Of a stretch of 64,000 nucleotides of DNA, positions 696 to 62,793 are shown piece after piece. The notes under the pieces were generated by a model that searched no databases, was not told where the DNA came from, and saw only the letters and a program-made list of their open reading frames with translations. Every line of letters begins with the position of its first letter. The stretch's first letter is position 1. Origin of the DNA: an uncultured Gemmatimonadaceae bacterium. GTDB lineage: Bacteria > Gemmatimonadota > Gemmatimonadetes > Gemmatimonadales > Gemmatimonadaceae. Location of the stretch: contig CAWHHI010000012.1 in the NCBI GenBank assembly GCA_963829055.1, positions 448,001 through 512,000 of the forward strand, in the 5' to 3' direction. Made by a program: the position numbers and the translations under genes.

Positions 696-2021
696 ATGCG
701 ATTGTCGCTCGGCCCACTCGTCGCCGCAATCGTTGCTCGCCCCAACTGCGCTCGCCGCACAAGGCGTCTGCGTCGGCGCTCACGCGCGAGATCGACCGCC
801 GTGCGCCGCAGCTCGAAGCGAAAGCCGATCGCGTGGCGACGTGATATCCACCAGCACCCCGAGCTGTCGAATCGCGAGGTGCGGACGTCGAAGCTCGTCG
901 CGGATCATCTCGCGCTCACTCGGGATCGAGGTCCGCACGCGTCGCCAAGACCGGAGTCGTCGGCATCGCTTCGCGGCGGGAAACCGGGCCCCGTCGTCGC
1001 GCTCCGCGCGGACATGGACGCGCTGCCGGTGGCCGAGGAGGTCGATGTGCCGTTCAAGTCGACCGTGCGGTCCACGTACAACGGCCAGGACGTCGGCGTG
1101 ATGCACGCGTGCGGTCACGACGCGCACGTCGCGATTCTGATGAGCGTCGGCGGAGCTGCTCGCCGGTATGCGTGATCAGGTTCCGGGGACCGTGAAGTTT
1201 CTCTTCCAGCCCTCCGAGGAAGGTGCACCGCCGGGTGAAGAGGGCGGCGCGGCGCTGATGATCAAGGAGGGCGCGCTCGACAATCCGAAGGTCGACGCGG
1301 TGTTCGGCCTGCACGTGTTCCCGTACGAGGTCGGGACGATGCACTATCGACCGGGTGCGCTCATGGCGAGCTCGGACCGATTCGAGATCGTCGTGCACGG
1401 CCGGCAGACACACGGTGCACTGCCCTGGAACGGCGTCGACCCGGTGGTCGTCGCGTCGCAGATCGTGCTCGGGCTCCAGACCATAACGAGTCGGCAGGTG
1501 AATCTCGTCGCAGTCGCCGGCGGTCGTGACCGTCGGGCGAATCAACGGCGGCGTGCGCTACAACATTGTGCCGGATAGCACGGTGCTCGAGGGCACGATC
1601 CGCACGTTCGACGAGGGCATGCGATCGGATATCCACGAGCGAGTGAAGCGAATCGCGGAATCGATCGCGGCAAGCGCAGGAGCGACGGCCACCGCGACGG
1701 TGTTTCCGTACACGCCGCGTGACGATGAACGACGTCGCGCTGACCGAACGCATGGCTGGCACGCTCAAGCGCGTGGCCGGCGCGGACAAGGTGGCGATTG
1801 CGAAGCAGACGACGACGGCCGAGGACTTCGCGCTGTACGAGCAGAAGGTGCCGGGCATGTTCTTCTTCCTCGGGATCACGCCGAAGGGGCAGGATGCGTC
1901 GAAGGCGGCGCCTAACCATTCGCCGCGATTCTTCGTGGATGAGGCCGCGTTGGTGCCGGGCATTCGCGCGCTCGCGAACCTCGCGGTCGACTACCTGCAA
2001 TCGGCAAAGCCGGCGCAGTAA
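696..2021 (+). CDS. M20D family amidohydrolase (frameshifted)
   Basis: Motifs RRDIHQHPELS, VALRADMDALP, MHACGHDAH, FQPSEEG, GRQTHGA, TAEDF and NHSPRF are spread over ORFs 621, 1168, 1526 and 1719. Confidence 0.9.
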
Positions 2022-2100
2022 GCCAGTGCAGTCCGCCGGCCCGGTGAAACCGCGTTCACCGAGGCCAGCCGTACGTCGGGAGACCTCAACCCCGACCCCC

Positions 2101-4543
2101 ATGCAGGCGGTTCTCAGAGACATCCGATACGGCGCCCGTTCGCTGCGTGAAGAGCCGCGCGCTGACGGCGGTCGCGGTCCTCGCCCTCACGCTCGGCATC
2201 GGACTCACGACGACGATGTTCAGCATCGTGTACGGCGCGCTGCTCAAGGGCATGCCCTTCCCCGATCCCGACGACTCGTCGCCGTGGCAGCGACAGAACC
2301 TGTCGCGCGGCAATCGAGCGCATGCTGACACCGATTCACGATTACCTCGACTACCGCGCGCAGCAGCGGAGCTTCACGGGCATCGCCGCGCTATCACAGC
2401 GGCACCGTCAACGTCAGCGGGGCCGAGAAGGCCGAGCGCTACGACGGCGCGTGGGTGACCGCCGAGTTGTTCGACGTGCTTCAGGTCCGACCGCTGCTCG
2501 GCCGTACGTTCCGCGCGAGCGAGGAAACGCCCGGGCTCGGGCAACGTCGCCATGCTGAGCCACTCGATGTGGCAGGATCGTTATGCGGGCGACCCGCAGA
2601 TCATCGGCAAGTCCATTCGCGCGAACGGGCAGTCCCGTACACGGTCGTTGGCGTGATGCCGCCGGAATTTCAGTTTCCGGATCAGCAGGCGATCTGGATG
2701 CCGATGCAGCTGGACGCCACGAAGCTCGAGCGCGGCAAGGGGCTCGGCGCTCGAGGTCGTCGCGCGACTCAAGCCGGGCGTGTCGCTCGACGCCGCGAAC
2801 GCCGACGTCAACGCCATCGCGCGCCGGATCGCGGCCGAGTACAAGACGACGAACGAAGGCATCACGCGCGTCGGCGCGGCCGATCATCGAGACGCAGATC
2901 GGCCCGCAGGCGCGTCGACTGCTCTGGACGATGCTCGGCGCCGTGTTCTTCGTGCTGCTCATCGCGTGCGCGAACGTCGCGAATCTGCTGCTCGACCGCG
3001 CCGCGCATCGGACCAAGGAAGTCGGCATTCGCACGGCGCTCGGCGCATCGCGGCTGGCGGTCGTTAGGCAGTTCCTGAGCGAAGCGCTGGTGCTCGCCGG
3101 CGCCGGCGCCGTGCTTCGGCGACGGTGCGTCGCGCAGGTCGGCGTGATGCTGTTCAACCGCGCCATCGCCGACACGAATCCACCGTTCTGGCTCGACATC
3201 CGGCTGCACCCGCCGGTGCTGCTGTTCGTCGCGGCGACTGCGGTCGTCGCGAGCCTGTTCTCCGGAGCGATTCCCGCGTATCAGTCGTCGCGCGCGGACA
3301 TCAACGAGATCCTGAAGGACGAGTCGCGCGGCGCATCGAGCTTCCGCATCGGACGCCTGAGTCGCGCGCTCGTCGTGTTCGAGATCGCGCTGTCGTGCGG
3401 GCTGCTCGTCGCGTCGGGGCTCATGGTGAAGAGCGTCATCGAAGCTCCGCGACGCTCGACCCCGGCGTCACGACGAAGAACATCTTCACGGCGCGCGTCG
3501 GGTTTCCCGATACGTACACCGACACGGCGGCCCAGACCCGCTTCTTCGACGCAGCTCGCGCCCCAGCTCGCCGCGATTGCCGGGCGTCCAGGGCGTCGTC
3601 GCTCAGCTCGCAGGTGCCGGGCACAGTGCTGCGGGCGGCAGCCTCGTCGCGATCGAGGGCAAGGCGTACGCGACCAGATCGCGATTATCCGCTCACGCAG
3701 ATCGCTCACCGTGTCGGATCGAGCTTCTTCAGGACGTTCGAGGTCGCTGCGGTGCAGGGACGCGTCGTTCTCGACGGACGACAAGGCGGAATCAGTCCCG
3801 GTCGTGATCGTCAACCAGTCGTTCGTGCGGAAGCACTTCGCGTCCGACAACCCGCTCGGCCGGCGGATCCGACTTGGCGGCGCGAATTCGACGGACCCGT
3901 GGCGCACCATCGTGGGCGTCATTCCGGACATCTTCACCGGCGACCCGGCAATCCGCGCGATGCCGGCATTCTGCGTTCCACTGCCCCAGAGTCCGATCGA
4001 ACGGTTCGTGAGCATCGCCGTTCGCGCGCCTAACGCAATGGCGCTCACGCCGCAGGTGCGCGCCGCGGTGGCCTCGCTCAATGCCGACATCCCGATCTAC
4101 TTCGTGTCGTCCGATGAGCGAGGCGGTGCGAGCGGAACGTCTGGCACATCCGCGTGTTCGGCGGCCTGTTCATGGTCTTCGGATGTCGCGGCGCTGCTGC
4201 TGGCCGGCTATCGGGCTGTACGCGGTGATGGCGTTCTCGGTCAGCCGTCGCGCGCGCGAGGTCGGCATCCGCATCGCGCTCGGCGCGCGCACGTCGCACG
4301 TGCTGCGCCTGGTGTTCCGCCAGGGGATCATCCAGCTCGCGATCGGCATGACGTTAGGCCTCGGCCTCGGCGCGCTGGTGTCGCAGGGCATTGCGCTGGC
4401 GCTGTTCGAGGTGCAGCCGCGGGATCCGGTGACCTTCGCGGCGGTCGTTGCGCGTGCTCACGGCGGCGGGACTGCTGGCGTGCTACATCCCGGCGCGTCG
4501 AGCGGCAAAGGTCGATCCCCTCAGCGCAATGCGAGCCGAGTGA
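2101..4543 (+). CDS. ADOP/MacB-like duplicated ABC permease (frameshifted)
   Basis: [79 protein letters not shown] and a C-terminal VDPLSAMRAE. Confidence 0.9.
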
Positions 4544-4600
4544 TACGGACACGGGCTGGCATCGCGGACGGCGTGCCTGTCGCGAGTGATCAGTGCGTGA

Positions 4601-4710
4601 GTCGTCGGTCATCAGTCATCAGTCCGAGTCGTCAGTAGCAGCGATGGCGGCTCGCAGCCGTTCGCCAGGCGAGACTGAAAACTGATGACTGACGACTGAG
4701 CACTGACGAC
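4601..4710. repeat. Inverted 7-nt-period repeat, (GTCATCA)n...(ACTGANN)n, between convergent genes
   Basis: Left arm gtcgtcg gtcatca gtcatca at 4601-4624; right arm actgaaa actgatg actgacg actgagc actgacg at 4674-4710. Confidence 0.7.
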
Positions 4711-4757
4711 ATGTTACTGCTAGACCGACTGCATGCCAGCCTAACGCCGCAGCAGCT

Positions 4758-7833: not shown

Positions 7834-8680
7834 ATGCAATGTCCCCAAGGATTCCACGCGCGGCGATTCGTCGCGGTGCTGTGGGGAGCAACGGTTGTGC
7901 TCCCATCCATGCTGCCGGCGCAGGGGTCGGACTCCCTGCGTGCCTCGCATCACCCACCGGTCATCACGTGGCTCGACGCGGCGACGCTCGGCGCCGGCAT
8001 CGCGGGCTCGATCGCGCTCATGGGCAGCGACTCTCGGATCGCCAGGCGACTGCAGAGCGATCCGTACCAGAACAACGATCACTACCAGGACATCGCCAGC
8101 GTCGCTGGAAAGTTCAACGAGAAGAGTCTGTTCGCCGTCGGGCTGATCACGTACGGCGTGGCGAAGCTCGTGCACGCGCCGCGCACGACAACGGACATCG
8201 CGTGGCACACGACGGAGTCGATCTTCATCGCCAGCGCGACCGCGACGATCGCCCGCGGCATCCTCGGCCGCTCGCGGCCGTTCGTCACGGCGGATTCCGA
8301 TGCCTATGACTACAAGCCGGGCATGGGATTTCGGGAGTTGAAGTACCGCGCGTACCCGTCCATTCACGCCGCGTCCGCGTTCGCCACCGCATCCGCGCTG
8401 ACGACGGAGACGGCACGCCACTCCCACGGGGCGGCGTGGATAGTCGGCCCGCTCAGCTACTCGCTGGCGACATTGCCCGGCCTCGCGCGCATGTACGAGG
8501 ACAAGCACTGGGCGAGCGACGTGCTGATGGGCGCAGCGTTAGGCACGGTGACTGGCTGGGCGACGGTGCGCTATCATCACAACCGCGAGGGCAACCGACT
8601 CGACAAGTTCTTTCTCGGCCCGGCGCCATCGGCAACATCGAACGGCGGAGATCGCGCTCGACGTGGGGCTTCACGTTTGA
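7834..8680 (+). CDS. PAP2 family phosphatase
   Basis: GRSRP, YPSIHAASAF and ARMYEDKHWASDV match the PAP2 C1-C3 motifs; the 3' end is disturbed by an indel. Confidence 0.85.
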
Positions 8681-9524: not shown

Positions 9525-10114
9525 ATGCGACTCCTCAACTTCAGCGGCACGCCAGCGGCACTTCTCATGATCTCGTTCGCGGCGGCCGCGCTTGCACGGG
9601 CAGACCATGGGCGGAATGGACCACAGCGCTCACGCCGCCATGAGCAAGACATCAGCGCCGATGCCCGCTGGCCAGGACGCGTACGCCACGGTCGCCGCGG
9701 TCGTTGCGGCACTGGAGGCCGATTCGACCACGGACTGGTCGAAGGTCAACATCGAGGCGCTTCGCCAGCATCTGCTCGTCATGAACGACGTGACGCTCGG
9801 GGCGCGCGCGACGCAGTCTCCGGTCGCCGGCGGCGCACGCATGGACGTCACGGGCGACGGCCGCGTCGCGCAGTCCATTCGCGCCATGCTGCACGCACAT
9901 GCGCGGCGAGCTGGAGAAGTTGGGCACGTACCACGCGACGGTCGACGACATTCCGTCGGGCGCCCGCCTAACGGTGACGGCGTCGGACGCCGGCAACACG
10001 GCGACCGATTGCGAAGATCCGCGGCTTGGGCTTCATCGGCCTGCTGACGTTCGGCGACCACCACGCGCCGCACCATATCGCGCTGGCCGCGGCAGACGAT
10101 GAGCGCATCGGTAG
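9525..10114 (+). CDS. Exported His/Met-rich conserved hypothetical protein (possible metal binding; frameshifted)
   Basis: Signal-like N-terminus, then MGGMDHSAHAAM, GQDAYA...LEADSTTDWSKVNIEALRQHL and C-terminal GFIGLLTFGDHHAPHH. Confidence 0.65.
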
Positions 10115-10125: not shown

Positions 10126-11792
<1,667 letters not shown>

Positions 11793-12483: not shown

Positions 12484-13423
12484 ATGTCTGATGCGGATCC
12501 GAACCACGCGTCCGGTGCACGTCGGAAAATGCCGAGGATCGCGGCATCGCGCCGCCGGGATTTCGGCTCCCACCCGCGACGCACATAGGCGTCGTTCGCC
12601 TGCAGGTCGCGGACCTCGCGCGCTCGCTCGCGTACTACGAGCGCGTCCTCGGATTTCGCGTACGTGCGCCGCGACCGACGGGGTCGCGGCTCGGCACCAG
12701 TCGACGGCGAATCGCCGATCCTCGAGCTGCGCGAACGGCCCGGCGCGCAACCCGCATCCGCGAGCGCGGCCAGCTCGGACTCTTTCACTTCGCGATTCTC
12801 CTTCCCGATCGCGCGTCGCTCGGACGCTTCGTTACGCCACCTGTCGGAGATCGGCGCGTACGCCGGCATGTCCGATCATCTCGTGAGCGAGGCGCTCTAC
12901 CTCACGGATCCCGACGGACTCGGGCATCGAGGTGTACGCCGACCGTCCGCGCGCGGAGTGGACGTACGACGGCCGCGAGCTCGCAGATGGCGACGCTTCC
13001 GCTCGACGTGCAGGACCTCGTGGCGGCCGGCGGGACAGAGCGCTGGACGGGCATGCCTAACGGGACGACGATCGGCCACGTGCATCTGCACGTCGGCGAT
13101 CTCGAGGAGGCCGCCGCGTTCTACCACGAGGCGCTCGGCTTCGACAAGGTCGTCTGGAGCTACCCGGGCGCGTTGTTCCTCTCGGCGGGCGGCTACCATC
13201 ATCATCTCGGCACGAACACGTGGGCGGCGGCGCACCGCCGCGCGGGCGAGGATGACGCGAGCCTGCGTCGAGTGGGAGCTCGTGCTGCCTGACGCGGCGA
13301 GTGTCGCGCGGCGGCGGCGAGCGTCGAGCGGCGGGCGGGTCGAACGTTCGCCGGACGGCAGGTCCTCGCGCGCGATCCGTGGGGCACGGCCGTGAGGCTC
13401 GTCGCGGCTGAGGAAGACCGTAG
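12484..13423 (+). CDS. catE: VOC family protein, catechol 2,3-dioxygenase (CatE)-like (frameshifted; end approximate)
   Basis: [53 protein letters not shown] and DPWG; sits downstream of DoxX as in catDE. Confidence 0.8.
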
Positions 13424-13554: not shown

Positions 13555-16270
13555 CTAGTCCGCGCGGATCGAGATCAGCGGGTCGACCGCACACCGCGCG
13601 GCGCATCGGGCACCAGACACGCCGCGACCGCCGTCAGGAGCAGCACCGCCACGCCGATCGCGAATGACAGCGGGTCCGTGCGGCCGACGCCGTACAGCAT
13701 GTTCTCGAGCAGCTTCGACGCCCAGCGCGCGCCCAGCACGCCCGACGAGCGCGCCGACCGCCGCCATCACCACGCCGCGCCGGAGCACGGACTATCGCGA
13801 TCGTCGAGCGCGTGGCGCCGAGCGCGATCCGGATGCCGATCTCGCGCGTCTGCTGCGCGACCGCGTACGCCATCACGCCATAGAGCCCGACCGCGGCCAG
13901 CACGAGCGCGAGCACCGTGAACGCCACGAGCAGCGTCATCGTGAAGCGCGGCCGCGCGATCGACCGCTGCCATGACGTTCTCGATGTTGGTGACGTTCGG
14001 CGACGGCAGTGCGCGCGTCCGCCTGCGCGAACGAGCGCGCGGAGCGACGGAATCGGATCGGCGCCCGGCGCGACGCGAACCATGAGCGCCGGCTCGTAGG
14101 AGTCCGTCGCCGGCAGGTACAACATCGGCCGACTCGCGTCGCCCATGAGGCCGGCCGTGAGCGCATCCGCGACGACGCCGACGATCGTCGTCCAGTCGCC
14201 CTGGCCGTTGTAGACGACGCGAATCCGGTGACCTAGCGCCGACTTCCCGCGGCCAGTACTTCTTCGCGAAGCCGTCGTTGACGAGCGCCTGTCCGTGCCG
14301 CCTTCGACGTGTCGGTGATCGTCGAGCCTTCGACGAGCCGAATCCCCATGAAGCGGAAGTAGTCAGGCTCGACGCCGGTTGTAGTCGATGAACGACGTCG
14401 TGCCCGCCGGCGGCAGCGGGTCGCCCTCGATCTGCAGCGCACCGATGAGGAAGCTCCGCGACGGCGGCGCGCCGTCGGCGATCGTCAGCGGCCTCGACGC
14501 CGGGCACGTGACGCATCCGTTCGGCGATGTCCGACGAGGAACGCCTGCCGCGCCTCGGTCGTCGGATACTGCCTGCCGGCAGCGTGAGCTGAACCGCGTA
14601 CAGCCGCGACGGATCGAAGCCGGGATCGATGCGTCTGCAGGTGGACGATGCTGCGAATGAGCAGCGTCGCGCCCACGAGCAGGACCGTGGACACCGCCAT
14701 CTCGCTCACGACGAGCACCGAGCGACAGCCGTCGCTGCCGCCGCGACTGCGACACGGACGATGGCGCCTGCCTTGAGCGCATCGTTCGCGGAGAATCGCG
14801 CGGACTGCAGGGTGCCGAGCAGCTCCGACGATGAGTCCGGTCAGCGGCGGCGAGCCCCGCCGTCACGAGCAGCGTCGTCCCGTCCATTCGCGCCTCGCGC
14901 CAGCTCGGCGAGCGACTCCGGGCGCATCGCGACGCAGCGCGCTGCAGTCCGACCCAGCCCGACCAGAAGTCCACCAAGACAACCGGCGACGGCGAGCAGC
15001 AGACTCTCGGTGAGCAGCTGCCTGACGATGTCGAACGCCGACTCGCGCCCATCGCCGCGCGAATCGCGAGCTCGCGCTGGCGCGCGGCCGTCTTCGCGAG
15101 CAGCAGATGCGCGACGTTGCCGCAGGCGATGAGCAGCACGAGCGCGACGGCAACCGACAGCAGCAGCAGCGACTGACGGAAGCTCACCAGCTCGCTCGGC
15201 GCCGTGAGCTTGACCGTGAAGTCGCTCGCTCGCGCGCCTTCGGCCTGCTTCGCGGACGCTCGGGCGTAGATCGAGTCGAGCTCACGCGTCGCCGCGGCCA
15301 TGCGTCACGTTCGGCCGCAGCCGCCCGACCGAGTCGGCACGGCAATGCTGTCGTTGCGCAGGTCGAGCGGCAGCCAGACGTCGCTCACCGTTCTCCTCGA
15401 GCCTGCGGCAGCCGGTACCCGACCGGCATGACACCGATGACCGTGTACGGCTGATTGTCGAGCGCGATCGACTTGCCGATGATCGCGGCGGTCGCTCCCG
15501 TAGCGCCCACGCCAGAACGGCTCGCTCAACAGCGCGACGCGCCCGCCGTCGGCGATGTCGCGCGACGTGAACACGCGGCCGATGATCGGTTTCGTCCCGG
15601 TGAACTCACTGAACGACGGCAGGACCGACGCACGTTGACGCTGGCGGGTGTGCCGTCCGTCGTTCGCAGCGAACGGTCCGTCGCCGTGTACGCCTCGAAC
15701 GCCTCGAACGATCGGGCGTTCTCCTTCCAGGCGCGCACGACCTGCATGTCCGCGGCATGACCATCACGCTCATGCCGGTGTTGTTGCCGCGCGTCGGCTC
15801 GAGATACACGAACGCGATGCGATCCGCGTTCGGGTACGGCAGCGGGTGGAGCAGCAGCGTGTTGACGACGCTGAACACGGCGGTGTTGGCCCCAATGCCG
15901 AGCGCCAGCGTGATCACCGCGACGGCGGTCCAGCCCTTCTGCCTGCCTAACGTGCGCCAGGCGAACTGGACGTCGTGGACGAACGCGTCGACGAGCTGCG
16001 CGCGAGTCATGCGACGTTCCCTCCGGGAGGTGATGGCGATGCATTCGGCGCGCGCGCTGTGCGAGGTCGCCGAGTCGGCGCGTCGCGGCACGACGTGCGT
16101 CGGTCGTCGGACATGCCGCGCTCCATGTAGTCGCGTGCGCGCATGTCGATGTGAAACGCGAGCTCGTCGTCGACGTCGGCCTCCGCGCGCGGACCCCAGA
16201 AGCGCAGGTAGCGCCGCCACGTGGCGGCGCGTGGGCGTTCGGGGGCGGGCGCTTGCTGCGGATCGTTCAT
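13555..16270 (-). CDS. ADOP/MacB-like duplicated ABC permease with N-terminal prefix domain (frameshifted)
   Basis: [68 protein letters not shown] and [10 protein letters not shown]. Confidence 0.9.
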
Positions 16271-16285
16271 GAGCGGTCTCGCGAG

Positions 16286-16631
16286 TCAGCGCGGGCGCGG
16301 GGGCGGTCTCGAGCACCTTGAACACGGCGCCGGCGAACCGCGCCCAGTAGTCGCGCGACGCGGCGAGCTGCTTCTTGCCGGCGGTCGTTAGGCGATAGAA
16401 CTTCGCGCGCCGATTGTGCTCGGTGATCCCCCACTCGGCCACGATGAGGCCGCGCTCCTCGAGCTTGTGGAGCGCCGGATAGAGCGAGCCTTCCTCGACC
16501 TGGAGGACGTCGTCGGTGCACTGCTCGATCCAGCGCGCGATGCCGTAGCCGTGGGCGGGCGCCCAGGAGAGCGTCTTGAGCACCATGAGGTCGAGCGTGC
16601 CCTTCAGGAAATCGGTCGTCGAGTCGGGCAT
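16286..16631 (-). CDS. padR: PadR family regulator (acidobacterial type, ADOP-linked)
   Basis: FLKGTLDLMVLKTL..HGYGIARWIEQ..VEEGSLYPALHKLEERGLI..EWGITEHNRRAKFYRLT; the stop is shifted by a probable indel. Confidence 0.92.
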
Positions 16632-16671
16632 GGGATGCGGCGTCGGCGGCTCGGCGGCGGTGATCCGCGTC

Positions 16672-16710
16672 ACCTAGGACTCCTATGTATATACCTCGGA
16701 CTCCTAGGGT
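16672..16710. promoter_or_regulatory. Two tandem imperfect palindromes upstream of padR; candidate PadR operator
   Basis: ACCTAGGACTCCTATGT (16672-16688) and ACCTCGGACTCCTAGGGT (16693-16710) start 21 bp apart; consensus CCTAGGA-C-TCCTAGG. Confidence 0.6.
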
Positions 16711-19791: not shown

Positions 19792-19938
19792 GCGAGCGTC
19801 ACCCTAACGTGACTCAACGAATGGCGGTGGCGGTCGCAGGCATCCGGGTGACCCGCACCTCCGCGCCGAGCTCGCAAGCCATCTCGCGATGCACATCGCG
19901 GAGAATATGCGGCGCGGCAACGAGCGCGGCGCCTAACG

Positions 19939-32283: not shown

Positions 32284-32344
32284 GGTCCACTCCCGACTGA
32301 GCGGATCCGATCATTTCACATTGGGTGCCAGGCCCTGTTCCCGC

Positions 32345-35093: not shown

Positions 35094-35445
35094 CCGCGGC
35101 AGCACCGACCGCTGCATGGTTTCGAATGGTAGGTATGGGAAACGAACAAGCGCGGGCGAGTGAGATTCCTCGCCCGCGTTTTCGCGCGTCATCTCGCTTT
35201 GTGTTCGCGGACGGCCTCGGTTCTCCCATCGAGTCGTAGGCGTGCAGCAACCACATCGATCGTGGACGCCGGGTCTATCGAGGACAAGAGTTGTGCCTAA
35301 CGCGGCCTCACAGCCGTATTGGTGCAACATCGTTCGGCACGAATGGTGACGCACGCTCCAACAGCCGGCCGCGGTTGGTTGACAGCCATTCTCGGCCGCG
35401 GTAGCGTCTCGCCGAGCAGTTGGGCTCGCCGACACCAGGTACTCA

Positions 35446-39790: not shown

Positions 39791-39831
39791 CAGATCCTAA
39801 GAGACGCCTAACGCTGCCAAGGAGCCGACCC

Positions 39832-41336: not shown

Positions 41337-41407
41337 TCATTTGCCCACCGTCTGAGATGGTAGGGCGTTAGGCGCAACCGTGAAACCTGCCGATTCAGCG
41401 CCGTCGC

Positions 41408-46039: not shown

Positions 46040-46788
46040 GTTAGGCGGTTCGCGAAGATGAGTGAGCGTGGTGACGCGGTAGTGTTCAGTGTCGGCATGC
46101 ACCCGCGTGTCCGCATGCGCGCGTTGCGCGATGCGCATGCTACGGCGTGCGCTCGCGACGGCACGACTTCGACGGCGGTGAACAGGCTCCTAAGTCGCGG
46201 ATCGACAACCGCATTGCTAGGACGCGCCGTGCCCGAAAACGTCACCCGCCCGCGAAGCAGCGCGACGAGCGCATGGACCGACGCCGCGAACGCGCTCGAA
46301 TCCCGTCGAGCGAACCGAACGGCCCGTTGGCGGATCGGTCTTCGACAATGCGACGCGCGAGCACGGCGCCGATCCGTGGGAGCGATTCGATCTCGCTCTC
46401 GGTCGCGACGTCGAGATCCACGAGCGCACGGCTGCGCCGATGTGTCTCGCCACGGCATTCGACTCGAAGACAGCGCGAATCGAGCGGCTACGACGTGCCG
46501 TCCGCGAGATCCGATTCGGTGGAGTCGACCGCGCTGACGGAGTCCGCACGGGTCGCGGATGGCCACGCGGCCGACGAACGCTCCTGGTTCGATCGCGCCG
46601 CCCTTCTGACGTCGCGTCTTTGTCCGCGCGCCGAATCGACCGCGGCGAGCTGTCGCGCGAGCGCCTGGCGAGTTGCTGGCGTCCGACGATCCATCGTCGC
46701 GCGCGGCACGCACGACACGCACGCTCGCGCCGAGGACAATGACGCCGGCGAGGAACAGCAGCGCTTTGCGTTCGGCGGGAGTTGGCAT
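46024..46788 (-). CDS. comEA: ComEA-like helix-hairpin-helix DNA-binding protein (frameshifted; 3' end uncertain)
   Basis: N-terminal TM MPTPAERKALLFLAGVIVLG; VDLDVATESEIESLPRIGAVLARRIVEDRSANGPFGS..ERVRGVGP reconstructed across frames. Confidence 0.8.
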   Translation of the reverse strand: MPTPAERKALLFLAGVIVLGASVRVVRAARDDGSSDASNSPGARATARRGRFGARTKTRRQKGGAIEPGAFVGRVAIRDPCGLRQRGRLHRIGSRGRHVVAARFALSSSRMPWRDTSAQPCARGSRRRDRERDRIAPTDRRRARASHCRRPIRQRAVRFARRDSSAFAASVHALVALLRGRVTFSGTARPSNAVVDPRLRSLFTAVEVVPSRAHAVACASRNARMRTRGCMPTLNTTASPRSLIFANRLTWQLR

Positions 46789-49907: not shown

Positions 49908-49917
49908 CGCCTCCCAT

Positions 49918-51003: not shown

Positions 51004-54000
51004 CTCAGGTCTCCGGCGAAGAACTGCATCTGGACGACGGCCGTGATCACGGTCTGTATGAGTCGTCGGTTCAAGTTACGATCGAAGTTCACGATGCGAG
51101 AGCCCTGGATGCTGAACGTCGCGTTCTCGGCGACGTCGGTGTCGGCGTTCAGCGTGAAGGCCTGACGGCCGTTGTCGGTGAGTCGACTGCGCTGCGATGC
51201 GGCGAACAGATTCTGAACGTAGCTCTTGGTGCGGGCCTGCTGGAAGCCGAGCCTCGCGCGCAACCCGCTCTTGAGCCCCCAATCCGACCGGCAGCGCGAA
51301 CGTGCGGCCGATCTCCGCGCTCGTCTCCTTCGAGTTGCCGTTCGTCACGCTCCCCGGCAGTGAATCCACCTGCGTGCGGTACGAGTAGCCCGCCGTGGTC
51401 GTCAGCTCGCCCGGTGCCCAGGTCATCGATCCATTGATCGGGTACGTCTGCACGCGCGTGGCACGCTCCTCGGCGTTCGGCGCCGGTAATCACCGCGGGC
51501 ACCACCAGCGACTGGCGCGTACGCAGCAGACGGCCATTGATCCCGGCCGCCTTCACCAGGCCGCCGAAGCAACGGACCGCGCGGACTCCAGCGCACGTTC
51601 AGGTCGGGGAACACGATCTGGTCACCGTCGATGTTGGTCTGCTCCGCCTCGAGCCGTCGCGCCCAGTTGCGCGTCGTCGTCCGCTGCGTGCGATTCGTGA
51701 TCGCGAGGTCGAGCGGCAGGTTGAGCCCACTCGAGAGCGACAGCTGCGCGCTGGCCCCGGCACTGTTCGCGACGTCGCCGCTGAGCGCGCGGAATCCGGT
51801 GATCGAACCGATGCCGAGTTGATACCCGATACCGGGCGCGTCGGACGCGGCGTCGTAGGAGCTCAGGATCCCCTGCGTCGATGGACACGTCGATCGGTTG
51901 GAGGTATTGCGCGATGCGCCCGGCCAGCGATGCCGGTCCGGCGTACTTGGTCCCGGCTTTCGCGACATCGATCCCCGCGCCGACGGTGATGGTTCGTGTG
52001 TTTCCGAGCCGCACGGCGAGACGCGGCGGTTCGGCGGAACGCAGGCGTCGATGGCAGCGAATCACGCGAACAGCAGCGGAGCATTCGGATCGCGCAGCAA
52101 CGAGAAGCTCGACGCGAGGTCCACGCGAGGACGCAGCCAGCCCGGCGATCTCGGGCGCATACGTGACTGAGCTCGCAGAGCTGCCGCTCGCGCTCGATGC
52201 CGGCGTCCATCCCGAGGAACGACTCCGCGGTCGGTCGGCCGCGGCAGCCCCGTTAGGCGTCATCGGGTCGTAGTCGCGGAGGTCGCGGAGGATGACGACG
52301 TCCGCGCGCGCTGTGAGGTGCGGCAGCGGCTGTAGCTCCAGCGACCGATGCGTTCCGCCACAGATCGCTCTCCCCCGTCGCCACCCGGCCCGGTATCGTC
52401 CACGGCGTCCGCGGGCTTGAGGAACGACTCGCGCCGCTCGGAGTCGCGCGCCAGGCCGCTCGTGAGGCGGAACGACGTGGGTCGCAGGTTGAACGCGCCC
52501 GGTGCCTGACCGCCGGTGGACAGCCACGGCGGCATGAGTGCGCGAAGACCACGCGCGCCACCGTCGCCGCCACCCGGGCCCGAGCCCACGACCGGCAGCG
52601 TCACGAAGTAGTCGCCGGAAAGCGTGAACCGGTGTCGTGAGCCCGTCCTGGAACTCGGACCGGTTGCCTAACGCGTAGATAGGTGCCGGTGACGCCGAGG
52701 TGGTTGACGATCGGCGCGTACCAGGCGCCGGCGAGCGGCTGTACCCGTCTGACGGACAGCGCGTAGCTCGTGGACGATGTCCGCGGCGATCGAAGCCCCT
52801 CGATCTCGTCGCCGGCCACGTCCGACTGCGCGAGGAACGTCGGGTCGACAGCGGCGTTCGCGTAGGAGATCGTGAGTGGGAGCGCCAGACCCGAGACGTG
52901 GCGGCAGGAACTGGTCGAGCCGGACGGTCGTGGCGAGCTCCAGGTCGTTGTTCGTCTGGAACGACGGTGCCTCGCCCGAGCTGACGGAAGTACGGGTCCC
53001 GGCGCGTCGTCGCGATCCGGACCGTCGCGAGGTCGCCTAACGCCATCGACAGGCCGATCTGCCCGGCGAACCCACTCGTGTTCACGACGTCCGTCGAGCC
53101 GGATGTCATCGACCCACACCTCCATCGTGTCGCTCGGCGTGAGCGGCGTGGGCCCGGTCGCGGAGTCGACGCGCACGATGCCGACCGCGAGCTCCTGCAC
53201 GCTGCCGAGGTTCGGCGGCGCGACGGCTGGATCCGTCGTGTACACCATGTAGCCGCCGTCACACGCGGCGAACCGGTTCACGGCCGAACCGACCGGCAGC
53301 CCCGATCGCACGATGAGCGCGGAGTCGGCGCCCGAGCACGAGAGTGAATCGGCGCGAGCCGTTCAGGTACGCGCCTTCGAGCTTCGCGCGCAACGCGAAG
53401 AACTTCTCGAAGCGCACGCGGACCTCCGGCTCCCACGCCGCGCGTGTCGCGCCCGCGCTGGCGGGCGTGCGGTAGAGGTAGAAGTTGTTCGGGTCGCGAC
53501 CGATCTTGATGAAGAACTGCAGCTCGCCGTTCTGACCCCAGCCGTTGCCGCGGCCGCGCGCCCACACGCGAAGCTCCTTGTAGCGACATGAAGCTCTTCT
53601 GTCCTTCGGGAAACCTGAAGAACGCTTCGGCGCGGTCGTACTTCGCGAGACCGCCAGCCTGGAGGCGCAGCGAGCGCTCGTTGATCTGCACGCGCGCGGA
53701 GTCGAACTGCGTCTGAAGATTGTCCGGCTCGTCGACCACGCCGGGCGGCGGCTCGTAGACCAGGCCGCGCGTCGAGTCCTGACTCTCCGTGCCGATCACG
53801 CCCGCCACTGACGTAGCCCGGCGGGCTCTGTTCGCGCTCCCCGGCGATTCCGGCGAGCGGCCGGCTGCTGCGCTTGAGCCACGGCGCGCCGACGAAGCGA
53901 AGCCGCGCGATCGCGGTCGTGATGAACGCGTCATCGCTGCGCCGAATTCGACGAGATGGTCGTGATGCGCAGCGCCTGGACCCGGCGCACAAGCGGGCCA

Positions 54001-57000
54001 CCGTTGATGGAATCGCCCGCGGCGGCGAACGGCAGGCGCACGTGGACCCAGCACAGCGGGGTCGTGAGCGGCCGCGCGCCGTTCGGATCGTCCGACCCGC
54101 GCGCCGCACTCGCCCACGCGGTCGTAGCTGGTCGAGTCCGTGAGATCGACGATGTACCGAAGGAGTCGCTCGTCGGTGCGCATCGAGTTGTCGGCGTCGA
54201 GATCCTCCTCGTCGAGGCGGCTGTTGGCAACGGTACAGTTCACGCGGGCATCGCCTAACGCTCGAACGCGGATGTCGCCGCGGGTGCAGATGCGCACGCC
54301 CGTGTCCGCACGCGGCGACGCCACTGCTCGACGACGACGAGCGTGTCGACCACGTCGCCCGGGAGGCCGGTGTCGTTGACGTCGACGTTGAAGGCGCGCG
54401 AGAACGGGTCGCGCTCGGAATCGAGCCGGTTGTAGCTTTGCAGCTTTTTTCCCGTGTACGTGCTGTCGACCGTTCCTCCCTGCCCTGTTCCCGACGGTAA
54501 GACGTCTCGGGTGCGAATGCCACCGAATTCTCCGACACGTCACCCAGGTCCAACACCAGAATGGGGTTCGATGACCGCCGTACCGCGTTCGTATCCACCA
54601 GCGCCCAGAACTCGATCGTCTCTACGCCAGTGAGATCCGCGCCCGACGGGCCTAACGAGGTGCGGATCGATCGCCACCGCGGGCCCGGCAACGTGTTCGA
54701 CGACCTTCCAGCGATAGGTGTTCGTGGTCGGATCGCGCTGTCCGCCAATCGCCAGCGGGTAGAGCGTGAGCCACAACAGTGTTTCCGGCGCCGAGACCCC
54801 GGCGCCCACGATGTTCGTCTGCGGGTCGATCTGCTCGATCGTGAACCGCACGTCGTTGCCGCTGCGATCGGTGCCGTTCGTCTGCCACGCCAGCGTCGTC
54901 GCCCGCGCGAGATCGAGCGCGCGTGCGCCGACGCGCCCCGGCAAGCGCGCGCCTAACGTCGGCTGACTGCTGTAGTACCACGCGTTGTCAGCCAGCGACA
55001 CCGTGAGCCCCCCTTCTCCCTCGAACGACTCGATGTACGCCTGCCCCTTCGAGTTCGGCCGCGGCCGGCTCACCGCGAACTCGCCCTGCAGCTCGATCTG
55101 TCGACGGGCCGACGAGGCTGTCGCGGAAGGGCATCGACCGGCCGATGAAACGCCCGAGCGGCGTCGGCATCGAACAGGAACGCGCCGTTGACTCCGGCGA
55201 CGAATGACGACGCCGGCTCGTAGCCGAGCGGCGGCCGATGTGAACGTCGTTCGCTGCGACTGCGAGATTGCCGTGAAGTTGAGCGCTCCGTGTTCGCCAG
55301 CGAACTGCGTCGTGATGCCGAAGATCGACGTCGGAGTCGTCGTGAACAGCGGATTCTCCTCGTAGCTGCACGCGCACGCGCCGCGCGAACGGAAACAGCG
55401 TGTCGGGACGCGCGAACGTCACGCGACCCAGCTCGTAGTCGATCTGGTAGTCCACGCCGCGCACGAGCTGGCGGCCGTCGATCAGGATACGCTCGGATCC
55501 CTGACGCAGCTGCACCGCGTTCAGCGCCAGCGTTCCGACCTCGTCGCCGACCTGTGACTCGTAGCGTCACGCGCAGCCGGTAGAACGACTGCGGGTGCCG
55601 CGTGGAGTAGAGGTATTCATCCGGCGTCCGGTAGATCGTGTCGTTCGCCGGATTCTCCAGCGGACCGGCGAGTCCCGCGCGCGCGAATGGCTGCAGCGAC
55701 GGGAAGACAAGGAAGAAGTCGCGGATGACGTCCTCGACGCCACCTCCCTGCGCCACGATCCGGTTCGGATCGTTAGGTCTCGGCCACAGTCGGTTGTCCG
55801 CATCGAAGCGTGCGTTGTTCGTCGCCTCCGCGATGCGGAACTGCTGGATGTACGTGTCCGCGCCACCGGCAGCCGGCTTCTCCTGTTCGGCGCTCCCGCC
55901 GGTGAGGATGCGAAGCTGAACGGTCTCGCGCCGCACGTCGCGTACCGCCGATGCGATAGACGGAGCGGATCTCTCGGCGGAAGGCAGGATCGTCCGGCGT
56001 GACCTTCGGATCCCACAGCAGGTTCGCGAACTGATCTCGCCCCGACACGAACTCGAGGTCGGGCGTCCCGCCCGTGCTCACGATCGTCGTGTCGCTGCCC
56101 ATTGATGCGCACGTTGTAGGCGACCACGAGCCGCTCGCTGTTCTGACTCAGCGGCGTGACGAGCGCGAACCACAGGAGCGACGGATCGATGTAATAGTCG
56201 ACGCGCTCCCGGAGCAGCTCGTACACCTGGCCACGCTGCGATGTCGGGTCGCCAATGATCCGGAACTGCGGGCCGTTCGGATTGCGCGGCTGTCCGCCAA
56301 GCAGCAGGCGGTACACGAACACCTTCGACGGCCGCACGGAATCGGGCAGGGCCGCCGGCGAGCGCGGAGAGCTGGCGACGGTTGAGGATGTCGACGTTGG
56401 GGTACGCCGCCCCGAACAGCAGCGGGTCGACGGTGAAGAAGAACCGCCTCGGCTCGATCTGATAGTCCTCGATGTCTCGCGTCCGTTGCTGGACCGTCCG
56501 GTCGCCGACGATGAAAATCGACGTCCTGCACGACGTTGCCCTTCTGCTGCGCGGCGATGGCCGAGAACGTCATCGGGCCAATGCGGCCGGCGGCCTGGAC
56601 GCCGTAGTTGCCGCTCGGAATGCCGGACGTGAGGAAGCGCGAGGTCGGCGGCGCGAACGAGACGTTCCCGACCTCGAGGCGCTGAAGGAACTCGTTGCCC
56701 TTCCCCTCGTAGCGGATGGAGATGTTGTTCGAGGCGTCGAACTCGCGCTGGGTGTCGTAGTCGACGTCCACGTGGACACGGTCGGCGACCGTACCCCGCG
56801 TGAGCAGGTTGAACTGAAAGTCGAACGTCGGTTGGAAGCTGCCCTGGCAGCTGAACGCGGTCGCGAACAGTTGCGTGGAGCCACACCGGTCGTTCTTGAC
56901 CTGCTCGCCCTTGACCTCGAGCCGGGAGTTCAGCCGCAGGTCCAGCTTCTCGAAGCCTGGCGGCAGCGACCCGGCCAGGTTTCCAGCGCTGTCAGTCTTG

Positions 57001-57429: not shown

Positions 57430-59285
57430 GTGAAGATAATCAACAAGTATGTGCTGCAAGAGCACGTCGGGCCGCTCGTGTTCGCCCTGACGGCGCTCAC
57501 GTCGCTGCTGCTGCTCAACTACATCGCCAAGCGATTCGGTGACCTCGTGGGCAAGGGCCTCGGCTGGTGCGTCATCGGCGAGTTCTTCCTGCTCTCGGTC
57601 CCGTTCACCGTCGCCATGACGCTGCCGATGGCGGTGCTCGTGTCGACGCTGTACGCGTTCAGCCGCCTGGCGGCCGAGAACGAGATCACGGCGCTCAAGG
57701 CGAGCGGCGTCGGCATGACGCGCGTGCTCGTGCCCGGTGCTCGTTGCGGCGCCACGGTCATGGCCGTGTTCATGCTCTTCTTCAACGATCAGGTGCTGCC
57801 GCGCGCGAACCATCGGCTCAGCACGCTCCAGCAGGACATTGCCCGCAAGAAGCCGACGTTCGCGCTCAAGTCGCAGGTGCTCAACGAGGTGTCGCCGGGC
57901 AAGCTGTTCGCTCAAGGCCGACTACATCGATCAGTCCACGAGCTGGCTCCAGGTCGTCACGATCTACGACTTCTCCGACCCGTCCGGCGCCGGACGATCT
58001 ATGCGGACAGCGGCAAGATGGAGCTGGTCGGCGACGATCTCCTGCTGACGCTGCTACAGCGGCAACATGCAGGAAGTGCCGAAGAACGATCCGACGCAGC
58101 TGCAGCGCCTGTTCTACGACATCGACCGCGTTCGCGTCGCGGAACGTCGTGAACTCGCTGACGCGCTCGGACAGCGACGAACACGTACAAGGGCGACCGC
58201 GAGATGTCCGTCTGCGAGATGCAGAAGGAGTTCGCGTCGCACGAGCTGGACTTCGCAGGTGGCGCAGCTACTCGCTGGAGCACGCGCTGGTGTCTGCCGT
58301 ACGCGAGCTGACGACGGGCACGCCCGCCGTTGCGCTCGAGCCGACGTCGTCGATGCCGCCGTCCGCCGGCATCGAGACGAGGCGAGCTCGCAGGCCGGGC
58401 ACACGCTCGCTCCCGCGCGGCTTCAAGCCGCAGCTGTCACGCACGCATTGGCGGCGCGTACTGCAGCCTCATGCGCGAAGTTCGAGAAGGCGAAGCTGCC
58501 GCCGCTCGTGAAGTCGGCGAGTGCGGCCGAGCCTCCGCGCACAACAGCCAGCGCAGGATACGGCGCAAGCAGCACGACTCGGCGCCACAGCGCGCATACT
58601 CATGGGCGGGGCCAGCACCGGAGCCGTCACCGACGCGCGCCCGTTCGAAGTCCGCCACGTGGGCGCGCCTAACGGTGCCAGCCGCCGGGGTCGCGGTCGT
58701 ACCGGGCGCCGCCGATCGCGCCAGCCGCGCGCCGGTGCCCGCGCGACTGCCGGTTCCACCGCGCTGTCGTGCCAGGCGTTCATCCCTGTCGTACCGCGGG
58801 AGCCGACGTCAGCCGCCGCCGTGCTCGACGTCGACTGCGGCGATCGAGACGGCTCGCGGCCGCATGCTCGAGAACCGGACGACGATGAACCGCTACGACG
58901 TCGAGATTCAGAAGAAGTTCGCGCTCTCGGCGGCGTGCATCGTGTTCGTGCTCATCGGCGCGCCGATCGCGCTGCGGTTCCCGCGCGGCGGCGTCGGTCT
59001 CGTGATCGGCGTGAGCCTCGGCGTCTTCGCGATCTACTACGTCGGCCTCATCGCGGGCGAATCGCTCGCGGACCGCGCGTTCCTCACTCCGTTCTGGGCC
59101 ATGTGGGCCGCCAACGTGATTCTCACGATCGTCGGGCTCGTTGCTCCTGGCGCGCATGGGACGCGAGGGCGCGACGTCGCGCGGCGGAGACCTGTCGGAG
59201 CTGATCGACGCGCATACGTGCCAACCTCGCGAAGCTCGGGCGCCGGATTGGCTTCCCCGCCGAACGCCGCCACCGGACTGCCTGA
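57430..59285 (+). CDS. lptF: LptF/LptG family LPS export permease (LptF-like) with low-complexity insert (frameshifted)
   Basis: MKIINKYVL, LPMAVLVSTLYAFSRLAAENEITALKASG, EIQKKFALSAACIVFVLIGAP and AMWAAN. Confidence 0.88.
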
Positions 59286-60557: not shown

Positions 60558-61357
60558 ATGCAGCGGACGGGGATCAAGTTCTTCCGGAAGGTCACCCAGG
60601 GCGGGGCGCGGCATCTTCGCCGGCATCGGCCAGCGCGGCTACTTCATCCGCGACATCTTCCGCGCGTTCTCCGAGCCCGCCACGTGGGGCCGCGAGACGC
60701 TCGGGCAAATGCGGAACATCGGCGTCGACTCGGTGCCGCTCGTTATGATCGTGGCCGGGTTCCTCGGCGCGGTGACCGCGTTCCAGGCGTTCTATCAACT
60801 CTTCGCGGGTGTCCAGCTTTCCGTGCTCGGTCTCCTCGTGCGCGGCAGCATCGTGCTCGAGCTCGGGCCGCTGCTCACGGCACTCGTGCTCACGGGCCGC
60901 GTCGGCGCGCGCATGACCGCGGAGATCGGCACGATGCGCGTCACCGAGCAGATCGATGCGCTCGAGACGCTCGCCTACGATCCGATCGCGTACCTCGTGG
61001 TGCCGCGCTTGTTGGCGGCGCTGCTCATGCTGCCCGTCCTCACGATCATTGCGAACGCGACGGCGATCGTGCAGCGCGTGGCTGACGCTCATCATCGCCA
61101 CGACCGCGACGACGAACGACTACGTGACCGGCTTGCGTCTCAGCTTCGCGCCGTTCCAGGTCGTCTACAGCGTGATCAAGGCGGTGTGCTTCGGTGGCGC
61201 GATCGCCATCGTCTGCTCGTACGAGGGCTACGTGACGGGTGCGGGCGCCGAGGGTGTGGGGCGGTCGACGGCGAAGGCGGTCGTCATCGCGTCGACGTCG
61301 ATCCTGGTGCTCGACGCGATCGTCGCGGCGGTATTTGCCCAGTTCATCGCCGCCTAA
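60558..61357 (+). CDS. mlaE: MlaE family lipid ABC permease (frameshifted)
   Basis: IGVDSVP, ELGPLLTALVLTGRVGARMTAEIGTMRVTEQIDALE and GAEGVGRST. Confidence 0.92.
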
Positions 61358-61385
61358 CGAACGTGTCGTTTCGATACGTCGCCAG

Positions 61386-61557: not shown

Positions 61558-62439
61558 ATGAAACGACGAGACGAAGTTCTCGTCGGCATCCTGCTCACGG
61601 TCGGCGTTGTCATCGGCGTGCTCGGCACGATCTGGCTCGTGCGCGGCGGCTTCTCGAGAGGCTACCCACTCTACTCCCGCTTCAAGTGGGGCGCCGGTGT
61701 GAAGCAGGGACAGCCCGTGCGGCTGGCCGGCGTGCAGGTGGGCGTGGTGTCGGACGTCGAGCTCGACCCCAAGGGCACGATTCTCGTCACGATGAGCATC
61801 GAGAAGGTGTACTCGGTGCCGCGGAATTCGGTCGCCGCGGTGGTACCGGTCGGCATCTTCGGCGATCAGGAGATCGCGCTGACGCCGGCGGAGCCGAGCC
61901 CGATCTTCCTTCAACAAGGGTGACAGCGTTCCGCCAGCACTGCCAAAGGCAGGGCTTCCCGAGCTGACGGCGCGCGCCGATACGATATCGCAGCGGCTCG
62001 ATGACGTCGCGAAAGCGGTACAGGTCGAGCTCGTCGCGGGCGGCGGCATCGCGGACCTCCGGAAGACGCTCGCATCGACCAACGACCTCGCGCGCTCCCT
62101 GAGCGTGATCGCCACCGAGCAGTCGCGACAGCTCTCGCTCACGCTGACGCGCTTTCGGAACACCGCGGCCGCGCTCGATTCGACGCAGCTCGATTCGACG
62201 CTGCGCAATCTGCAGCTGACGTCGCACAATCTCGCGGCGTTCACGGACTCGTTGCGCGGTACGGCGCAGCAGCTCAACCGGTGCTCGCGAAGGCGAACAC
62301 GGGTGATGGAACGTTAGGCAAGCTGCTGAACGATCCGGGCCTCTACCACGACCTCCGCCGCCTGACGACTCGCCTCGACTCGCTGACGCTGGACTTCAAG
62401 AAGCACCCGAGGCGGTACATCAATCTCGAGATCTTCTAG
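61558..62439 (+). CDS. mlaD: MlaD/MCE family protein (frameshifted)
   Basis: MKRRDEVLVG, GVKQGQPVRLAGVQVGVV, GTLGKLLNDPGLY and DFKKHPRRYINLEIF. Confidence 0.9.
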
Positions 62440-62507
62440 TCGCCAACCGAACGGCTTTCACTGCGGCGGACGTCGACGGACTGGTCGACCGCCGATCGAA
62501 GTCGAAC

Positions 62508-62624
62508 GGCGAACGGATACCTCGGATCGAGCTGATTGATTCCGCAGTGGCGGGACGGATGCTGGCGCAACGGGCTGTTCGGCCATTCGGAGTCAGATCC
62601 GTAGATCCGGCAGATCCGTTCGCC
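62508..62624. repeat. Intergenic inverted element built from CGGAT/ATCCG units
   Basis: GGCGAACGGAT (62508-62518) pairs with ATCCGTTCGCC (62614-62624); AGATCCG at 62595, 62603 and 62612. Confidence 0.5.
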
Positions 62625-62702
62625 CCCTTCGTCTGAGGGGCCGGCTGAAGTAGTCCTCCGGCGGTGAATTGGCAGTGCGCCGCAGTGGACCATAGCACCG
62701 AG

Positions 62703-62743
62703 ACCCCTCGCGGCGCGCTCGAATCGAGCGCGCCGCGAGGGGT
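62703..62743. terminator. Perfect 19-bp hairpin downstream of the TonB-dependent receptor
   Basis: ACCCCTCGCGGCGCGCTCG-aat-CGAGCGCGCCGCGAGGGGT. Confidence 0.8.
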
Positions 62744-62793
62744 TCCAACATCAGGCGAGTAGCGCCTAACGGTGCCCCACGTCCACCGCTCCG

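Follow-up and report, generated by a model that had tools for sequence, protein, structure and literature searches.

A hyper-abundant octamer in Gemmatimonadaceae genes: a candidate uptake-type word identical to the integron core site

The octamer and its copies in the window

The DNA considered here is a 64-kb stretch (the window) of a Gemmatimonadaceae genome, G000, in which it occupies G000:C12:448001-512000. The feature under study is the octamer GCCTAACG, hereafter the word, which occurs 48 times in the window (30 copies on the plus and 18 on the minus strand), while CCTAACG is found 57 times (34 plus, 23 minus) and the core CCTAAC 62 times. These counts reproduce exactly those made by eye in a preliminary description of the same DNA, and every start position given there as an example is present. 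In 100 dinucleotide-preserving shuffles of the window, the word appeared 0.98 times on average (largest count 4) and CCTAAC 4.94 times (largest count 11), and no shuffle reached the observed number of either.

The copies placed in reading frames are read in four ways. The Leu-Gly reading (TTA GGC) is found at 8537..8544 (-) in a PAP2 open reading frame (ORF), at 15945..15952 (+) in a PadR ORF of the minus strand, at 29632..29639 (-) in an M20 peptidase ORF, at 33650..33657 (+) in the second of two kinase ORFs and at 38063..38070 (-) in a TPR ORF. Leu-Thr (CTA ACG) is read at 16386..16393 (-) within the YRLT segment of the PadR ORF, at 29141..29148 (+) in a short-chain dehydrogenase ORF, at 31678..31685 (-) in an HhH-GPD ORF, at 37031..37038 (+) in the same TPR ORF, at 58667..58674 (+) in an LptF/LptG ORF and at 21042..21049 (-) in a Ser/Thr kinase ORF. 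The same kinase ORF carries a second copy at 20636..20643 (-), read as Pro-Asn (CCT AAC), as is the copy at 4028..4035 (+) in an FtsX/MacB-like ORF. The Val-Arg reading (GTT AGG) occurs at 3062..3069 (-) in the same FtsX/MacB-like ORF, at 4352..4359 (-), at 44649..44656 (+) within the RLVRR segment of a T2SSE/PilB-like ORF, and at 28494..28501 (-) in a long frame upstream of an SDR domain whose coding status is unsure. Two gene examples of the preliminary description, YRLT of PadR and RLVRR of T2SSE, are thereby recovered in Pfam-supported ORFs. The other copies are recorded as sequence matches. On the plus strand they lie at 4739..4746, 9966..9973, 11072..11079, 13055..13062, 19241..19248, 19931..19938, 27231..27238, 28132..28139, 32343..32350, 34627..34634, 35295..35302, 39806..39813, 40389..40396, 41791..41798, 49708..49715, 49902..49909, 52666..52673, 53035..53042, 54253..54260, 54650..54657, 54951..54958, 61352..61359 and 62764..62771, and on the minus strand at 10354..10361, 17601..17608, 18588..18595, 40821..40828, 41366..41373, 46039..46046, 52251..52258 and 62312..62319.

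The G000 assembly (7.78 Mb, 20 contigs, 66.5% GC) is only 86% complete and looks indel-rich: rpoB (C19:47991-52509) is split into two frames, and several genes of the window look truncated, for instance the T2SSE ORF at 44377-45288. Four independent runs from soil or rhizosphere have contigs over this stretch, with 484 differences from the window; among 40 of these differences, none falls within a copy of the word. An origin of the word in assembly errors, a doubt raised in the preliminary description, is ruled out by this coverage and by the six other genomes of the genus: all seven members, G000 included, hold 2501-5112 copies. A literature search on the word, on Gemmatimonadetes uptake sequences and on over-represented octamers in soil bacteria found no paper on the word among the titles and abstracts listed.

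Abundance, anatomy and mode of writing

Across G000, 5004 copies were counted (2457 plus, 2547 minus), at 0.48-0.80 per kb on each contig and overall about one per 1-1.5 kb. Markov models of orders 0, 1, 2 and 3 predict 297, 131, 102 and 258 copies, respectively, and under all four the word ranks first by z among the 8-mers of the genome. At order 4 the excess falls to 1.7-fold, because the inner pentamers already hold it. Synonymous-codon shuffling within called genes leaves 162 ± 13 copies (20 shuffles, largest 201) against 3330 observed, a 20-fold enrichment. The enrichment claimed in the preliminary description thus stands against the Markov models as well as against an amino-acid-preserving null.

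Conservation stops sharply at the edges of the eight letters, with 0.13 bit or less at each position flanking the 5004 copies. Enriched variants differ at either end or at position 3 (ACCTAACG, 827 copies; GCATAACG, 583; GCCTAACA, 435; CCCTAACG, 428), and most other one-letter neighbors that keep TAA number a few dozen or fewer. Since nothing is conserved outside the eight letters, the word is not a repeat element, and the bare flanks exclude the attC sites of integrons as well. A dispersed repeat of the repetitive extragenic palindrome (REP) or miniature inverted-repeat transposable element (MITE) type is rejected on the same ground and on the location of 3310 copies within called genes.

The two strands are used equally. 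The split fits 50:50 over 137 bins of 50 kb (chi-square 140.8), the correlation of orientation with GC skew is weak (r = -0.19), and across the single GC-skew switch visible on contig C16 the strand split is about 53-59%. Adjacent copies share their orientation in 2587 of 4982 cases (51.9%). Within called genes, 1531 copies are sense and 1779 antisense, so that no transcription polarity is seen, and this balance places the signal on DNA rather than RNA. We read it as a recognition word at the level of DNA rather than a signal in RNA or protein, or a repeat element. Its portrait in the preliminary description as frame-independent, non-palindromic and weakly skewed is borne out, and the leading-strand bias of the kind known from Chi or the FtsK-orienting polar sequences (KOPS), named there as a property to be checked, is not observed; with replication-strand polarity missing, a Chi/KOPS role is rejected. 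One-strand polarity had also been suspected in other genera and is likewise rejected, as 200-kb stretches of G119 (57 plus, 67 minus) and G086 (52 plus, 35 minus) show mixed strands in nearly all 20-kb bins.

The spacing of the copies is more even than chance. Relative to an exponential expectation, gaps of 0-100 bp occur at a ratio of 0.22, those of 100-200 bp at 0.49 and those of 400-1200 bp at 1.1-1.36, independently of the orientation of the pair. The effect is repeated in G053, where 23 gaps under 200 bp are observed and 41 expected. The 25 pairs of G000 that lie within 45 bp of each other are mostly direct repeats; they have no common architecture, and operator-like paired sites are rejected.

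The word is written largely into genes, 3310 of the 5004 copies (66%) lying in called genes, a rough share, given that the gene calls are crude and take in 77% of the genome (61% of the window). Of the six frames, two contain a stop codon (GCC TAA, CGT TAG). The four remaining ones, named in the preliminary description, are all in use, with 1327 copies read as TTA GGC, 929 as CCT AAC, 602 as CTA ACG and 452 as GTT AGG. The claim that the word is imposed through rare codons holds: the word accounts for 46% of the TTA codons in called genes, and for 15% of CTA, 10% of CCT and 7% of AGG. When the peptide sites that could host the word are considered, it is present at 23% of [APST]-L-G, 19.5% of x-L-T, 46% of P-N-[VADEG] and 9.5% of V-R-[LPHQR] sites. 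The high share at Pro-Asn may indicate that residues were in some cases exchanged to accommodate the word.

The gene rpoB illustrates how the writing proceeds. It carries 43 copies in 17 word-rich genomes and none in 11 poor ones, and eight of the ten word sites fall on peptides that the poor genomes also carry, the other two being at variable peptides. Five sites lie at peptides invariant in every row (ALGP, GLTR, ALGA/S, PLGV and ALGI), and a single site may be common to as many as 10 genomes from different genera. Frames and stop codons were analyzed again in G053, where gene calls cover 90% of 400 kb. Its 298 copies comprise 141 read as TTA GGC, 68 as CCT AAC, 13 as CTA ACG and 10 as GTT AGG, with 36 intergenic copies and 30 at gene edges. 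In this genome the word contains 12 of 30 TAA and 20 of 72 TAG stop codons, and 9.5% of the genes end in it, compared with none of 326 genes in the poor genome G064. Collectively, writing takes place mostly through synonymous codons at invariant peptides, with stop codons in addition.

Distribution, turnover and the integron core site

A genome of the family was termed rich when it held 1000 or more copies. By this measure 24 of 151 family genomes are rich, the maximum being 6360 copies in 5.1 Mb; many others hold fewer than 50, while the reversed control word gives 100-400, and the baseline in relatives is about 5-40 copies per genome. The genome tallies include the unpublished genomes G021, G047, G048, G146, G204 and G233, on which no conclusion rests; G021 supplies one poor row of the RpoB tree and of the rpoB site comparison. 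Both states occur within one genus (G062, 3896 copies; G162, 4141; G120, 66). Over the 119 genomes from the rest of the phylum, counts are raised only in genus g109 (181-726), all others holding 91 or fewer. Among the matches listed, the closest named rpoB loci belong to Gemmatimonadaceae or Gemmatimonadota metagenome-assembled genomes (MAGs), and none of the roughly 10 Gemmatimonadota loci in the rpoB-based scan of named genomes is rich. Mapping over Gemmatimonadota, as proposed in the preliminary description, places the word in the phylum; it is confined there to part of one family, with g109 raised outside it, yet is present in a second phylum.

A quick RpoB tree was built from the 30 best-matching family genomes, two rows of which took a wrong ORF. 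It contains a clade of 13 rows that are all rich, a mixed sister clade and poor outer rows. The rich/poor label requires 5 changes on this tree, compared with 9.6 in shuffles, and none of 500 shuffles is as low. Word density is an inherited trait with losses, phylogenetically clustered within the family; the rich genera g45, g53, g60 and g78 were left out of the tree, and a single origin is therefore not shown. As a separate observation, the poor relative G064 (C1:1000001-1400000) has a modest 4.4-fold excess of CTGCTCGA/TCGAGCAG, with 104 occurrences against 24 expected, in the range of Chi-like words.

The patchiness of the word, which extends to a single genus in which G062 and G162 are rich and G120 poor, would fit an enzyme that is gained and lost. 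The word could then be a site of methylation, with repair or regulation linked to the modification driving its abundance, as has been suggested for the cyanobacterial highly iterated palindrome HIP1. A large gene with an Eco57I domain (about 1070 aa) is indeed found in G000, G062, G162 and the verrucomicrobial genome G313, but it occurs in 145 of the 151 family genomes, rich and poor alike. In profile searches, the C5-methyltransferase PF00145 and Vsr (PF03852) were not found in G000, G062 or G162, nor was PF01555 in G000 or G062; PF02384 had no match in G000 and only weak, fragment-level matches (E about 1e-5) in the rich G062 and G162. None of the methyltransferase/Vsr families examined tracks word density in the family, and they are rejected as determinants. 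With these enzymes not found in the genomes searched and the word asymmetric, m5C modification with very-short-patch repair of the HIP1 type is rejected. More generally, the word is not palindromic, m6A and m4C are not known to have a repair drive, and such a drive does not predict an exclusion zone of about 200 bp, so that a methylation site is improbable. Of the two roles inferred in the preliminary description, uptake agrees with the observed density, strand balance and even spacing, whereas a methylase-linked origin is not supported, PF00145, Vsr and PF01555 having been sought in G000 and G062 and not found.

The second phylum is Verrucomicrobiota, of which 121 genomes of the order Chthoniobacterales were counted. 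Four stand out (G313, 2140 copies in 2.9 Mb; G348, 2512; G367, 2028; G337, 948), and most others hold 5-50. In G313 (57% GC) the word ranks second among the 8-mers, behind CCTAACGA, a one-letter shift of the word itself. An A follows the word in 82% of the copies there, which is the only difference from the Gemmatimonadaceae word. The same genome also contains a second, unrelated hyper-abundant non-palindromic word, WTGTCGATCTT, which has bare flanks and is found about 1077 times in 603 kb, again on either strand. A metagenome contig (L415; 59% GC) has 16 copies in 18 kb on both strands, and its Der GTPase is only 39% identical to that of G000; its proteins match those of mixed phyla.

Turnover was followed by comparing G000 with its congener G001 over 165 kb of alignment at 82% identity. 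Of 96 G000 copies, 59 (61%) are intact in both genomes, compared with 26.3% of all 8-mer windows, so that word sites are kept 2.3 times better than background; 37 copies are found only in G000 and 34 only in G001. Among 28 one-step partners in orthologous pairs, ACCTAACG (13) and GCCTGACG (10) dominate, and almost all changes are transitions, as would be expected if the word arose by a context-specific mutational bias with neither reader nor function. Against such a bias stand the better retention of the sites, the many partner sequences that lie 2-5 letters away from the word, the over-even spacing, the sharp eight-letter boundary and the identical word in a second phylum at 57% GC. This makes mutational bias highly improbable.

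Three stretches of 31-50 kb at contig ends of G000 are free of the word (C6:5440-55037, C6:591808-623330 and C11:1-46789). They encode housekeeping genes (PGM, DAHP synthase, GlnA, FolD and GreA) and one D5_N primase-like protein; foreign DNA, chimeric joins and bin contamination are possible origins. At the other extreme, the IMG/VR contig L240 carries 19 copies on its two strands in 15 kb (15179 bases), a density of 1.25 per kb. Genes for terminase, portal, major head, holin and repressor mark it as a genuine, temperate-looking phage, and five of the 19 copies supply stop codons of phage genes. A phage of this kind, together with the even spacing and with word-free stretches that would mark non-resident DNA, is what could be expected if the word were a self tag for a nuclease or defense system, giving Chi-like protection without replication polarity and accumulating in resident DNA and in successful phages; the density also lies within the range of known Chi sites. 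However, Chi and KOPS sites are strongly co-oriented with replication, where the strand split is 50:50 here, and their enrichment is far below the 20-50-fold that the word reaches via rare codons. One word in two phyla would moreover be unexpected for co-evolving RecC or AddB pockets, and no candidate system for such a tag emerged. A self tag is accordingly judged quite unlikely.

Two further features of G000 were noted apart from the word. A dispersed repeat of about 140 bp, present in the window at 27448-27592 and 34114-34249, occurs in dozens of copies at about 80% identity in G000 and its congeners and looks like a MITE-type element; bins that contain it reach depths from hundreds to about 1260 in contigs of the four soil runs. 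PadR regulators of about 110 aa form a large family of paralogs, and 13 or more of them match a single G313 gene. They are accompanied by FtsX/MacB-like permease genes; in the window, genes of these two kinds lie at 2583-4586 and 15609-16673.

The preliminary description did not recognize the word as a described motif. In fact it is identical, letter for letter, with the inverse-core/core site of integron attC sites, RYYYAAC/GTTRRRY in its canonical form as given in PMC3053210. Poor relatives hold few copies, clustered on one strand every 500-650 bp. The cluster at G015:C95:1-24000, in a genome without the dispersed word, is the cassette array of a chromosomal integron. It has at least 26 attC sites, each about 95 bp long, in which the word forms the R'' box and GTTAGGC stands at the opposite end; same-strand clusters are therefore rejected as instances of the dispersed phenomenon. 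Clusters at G013:C3, G015:C43 and G015:C80 are likewise one-stranded with 500-650 bp spacing, and IMG/VR contigs of 30-64% GC contain many more clusters confined to one strand that resemble cassette arrays. G000 has its own integron-integrase match at C20:208041-208958 (265.7 bits, cut-off 265), and 8 attC-like hairpins of 60-128 nt, with the word at both ends, lie over the 90 kb before this intI (from C20:119251). Only these 8 elements qualify as attC-like. The dispersed copies, with bare flanks and no R''-L''...L'-R' imperfect palindrome of 57-141 bp, are rejected as attC sites.

The identity nevertheless raises the case that the word is a half-site of an integron integrase or Xer-type tyrosine recombinase, or of another chromosomal DNA-binding protein, serving landing, titration or chromosome organization. 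The chance that a random octamer contains GTTRRRY on either strand is about 0.4%, and the word forms the R'' box of the G015 array as well as both R boxes of the hairpins near the G000 intI match. Integrons are on record in both phyla, according to PMC8618304. Within Chthoniobacterales, eight genomes reach at least 340 copies, and 7 of them have an integrase over the cut-off, compared with 44 of the 113 others (Fisher p 0.0097); the five best-scoring integrases are all in enriched genomes, where the intI genes are intact. This association is only a hint, as the enriched genomes may simply be kin. In the family the integrase is not associated with the word (14 of 24 rich genomes and 74 of 127 others; p 0.59) and is rejected as its determinant: three rich g14 genomes and two of three in g53 have none over the cut-off, whereas the poor G120 has one. 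The dispersed copies have neither attC flanks nor a paired-site architecture, and 66% of them lie in coding DNA, where recombination would be harmful. Genomic cassette insertion, moreover, needs only GWT, as stated in bioRxiv 10.1101/2022.09.11.507474. On balance, a recombinase or chromosomal-protein site is considered unlikely.

Possible readers and comparison with known systems

The explanation placed first is that the word resembles the uptake signal sequences (USS) of Pasteurellaceae and the DNA uptake sequences (DUS) of Neisseriaceae and is kept up by biased DNA transfer and recombination through a predicted reader. We regard it as possible, somewhat short of probable; on our analysis, the anatomy of the word appears to fit a word of this type better than any rival, and we infer a transfer bias as the driving force and a protein as the reader. 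This explanation also draws on the retention of word sites between congeners, the low cost of the writing, the word-free stretches, the clustering on the RpoB tree and the presence of import machinery, with ComEC in all 24 rich genomes and G000, and with PilT and T2SSE genes lying within the window. As has been put forward for USS and DUS, a DNA-handling protein would prefer DNA bearing GCCTAACG, most probably as part of a DNA-import route (type IV pilus/ComEC) and less likely in a packaging or transfer step. Fragments bearing the word would be transferred and recombined more often, and the word would spread and be maintained where its cost is least, namely in synonymous rare codons at x-Leu-Gly, x-Leu-Thr, Pro-Asn and Val-Arg, in stop codons and in intergenic DNA. 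One copy per imported fragment would be sufficient, which would lead to the short-range exclusion between copies.

Several observations weigh against an uptake-type word. The same word is hyper-abundant in two phyla, whereas USS and DUS are lineage-private, and an uptake model does not account for the fact that it matches the integron core exactly. A second hyper-abundant word, as in G313, is unusual for uptake systems, and the word-rich phage fits an intracellular process or selection on phage DNA more directly. Inverted pairs or terminator-like arrangements, which are typical of DUS, show no excess among the G000 copies, and no abundant word of its own (a dialect) was found in the 400 kb scanned of the poor relative G064. 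Rich and poor genomes are not told apart by their competence genes, which are rejected as discriminators: ComEC is present in 139 of the 151 family genomes, most of the poor ones included, and PilT in 5 of 5 genomes tested. Finally, neither the family searches nor a partial screen of G313 yielded a candidate reader. In this screen, in which G000 ORFs were compared by tblastn with 603 kb of G313 (about 20% of that genome), high-identity outliers were housekeeping proteins only, the top ones being LepA, ThiC, an ABC ATPase, AdoHcy hydrolase, NuoB, FtsH, GAPDH, MoaC, OTCase, TerC, PadR and FtsX.

The two phyla, the integron-core identity and the word-rich phage do not suit a private uptake tag, and for that reason the recombinase site and the self tag are kept in play. 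The first two suggest a reader specificity that is shared or transferable rather than lineage-private, and all three motivate a further case, in which a shared reader couples DNA import to integrons. Here the word would be a public, integron-tied tag: a transferable reader common to some Gemmatimonadaceae and Chthoniobacterales, either an uptake-route protein or an integrase-derived module, would recognize the core octamer on incoming DNA. We consider this a long shot. If true, cells would favor DNA with cassettes during import and thereby supply their own integrons, the core site would have been written thousands of times into their own genes and phages as a by-product, and natural transformation would be mechanistically tied to integron cassette capture across phyla.

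Beyond two bacterial families, genome-wide uptake words are not known to have been established by experiment. Were the uptake-type explanation true, the word would add a third case, in soil phyla dominated by uncultured members and with a very high signal-to-noise ratio (thousands of copies against about 5-40). Its density could then mark resident versus foreign DNA in MAGs, as illustrated by the word-free contig ends of G000, and offer a direct handle on gene flow in soil. Apart from any explanation, a DNA-level signal here strongly bends codon choice and even stop-codon context, as seen from the 46% of TTA codons and the 9.5% of G053 gene ends. The occurrence of one word in two phyla, combined with its identity with the integron recombination core, is unexpected for any known class and raises the question of a shared reader coupling DNA import, phages and integrons.

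Among known systems, HIP1 of cyanobacteria is similarly a hyper-abundant octamer within genes and patchy by lineage; it differs in being palindromic and methyltransferase-linked, whereas the present word is asymmetric and the C5-methyltransferase and Vsr were not found in G000, G062 and G162. Chi, KOPS and the architecture imparting sequences (AIMS) share with it the over-representation of an octamer of the core genome that also occurs on a phage; the replication-strand skew of these sites is missing here, and the enrichment is far higher. With the integron attC core (GTTRRRY/RYYYAAC) the identity is letter for letter, and true attC sites, in relatives as well as in G000, have the word as their R boxes. 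In contrast to attC, the dispersed copies, 5004 in all, consist of the octamer alone and lack L boxes and a palindrome; they lie mostly in conserved genes and do not track the integrase in the family.

USS and DUS differ from the word in several respects. They have 9-12 letters rather than 8 and are lineage-private with dialects, where here one word spans two phyla and a poor relative has no dialect. The lack of terminator pairs, the word-rich phage and the coincidence with the integron core site also set the present case apart. USS and DUS are favored by competent cells when they take up DNA, and in Neisseria the word is read by the receptor ComP. In USS/DUS genomes foreign DNA stands out as motif-free stretches. 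The abundance, use of both strands, even spacing and conservation of USS and DUS are reportedly described by Smith 1995, Karlin 1996 and Treangen 2008. In these properties the resemblance is close: in both cases a short non-palindromic word recurs about once per kb, equally on both strands and in every open frame, is spaced more evenly than chance, is conserved at orthologous sites, is absent from foreign (here putatively foreign) stretches and is limited to certain clades.

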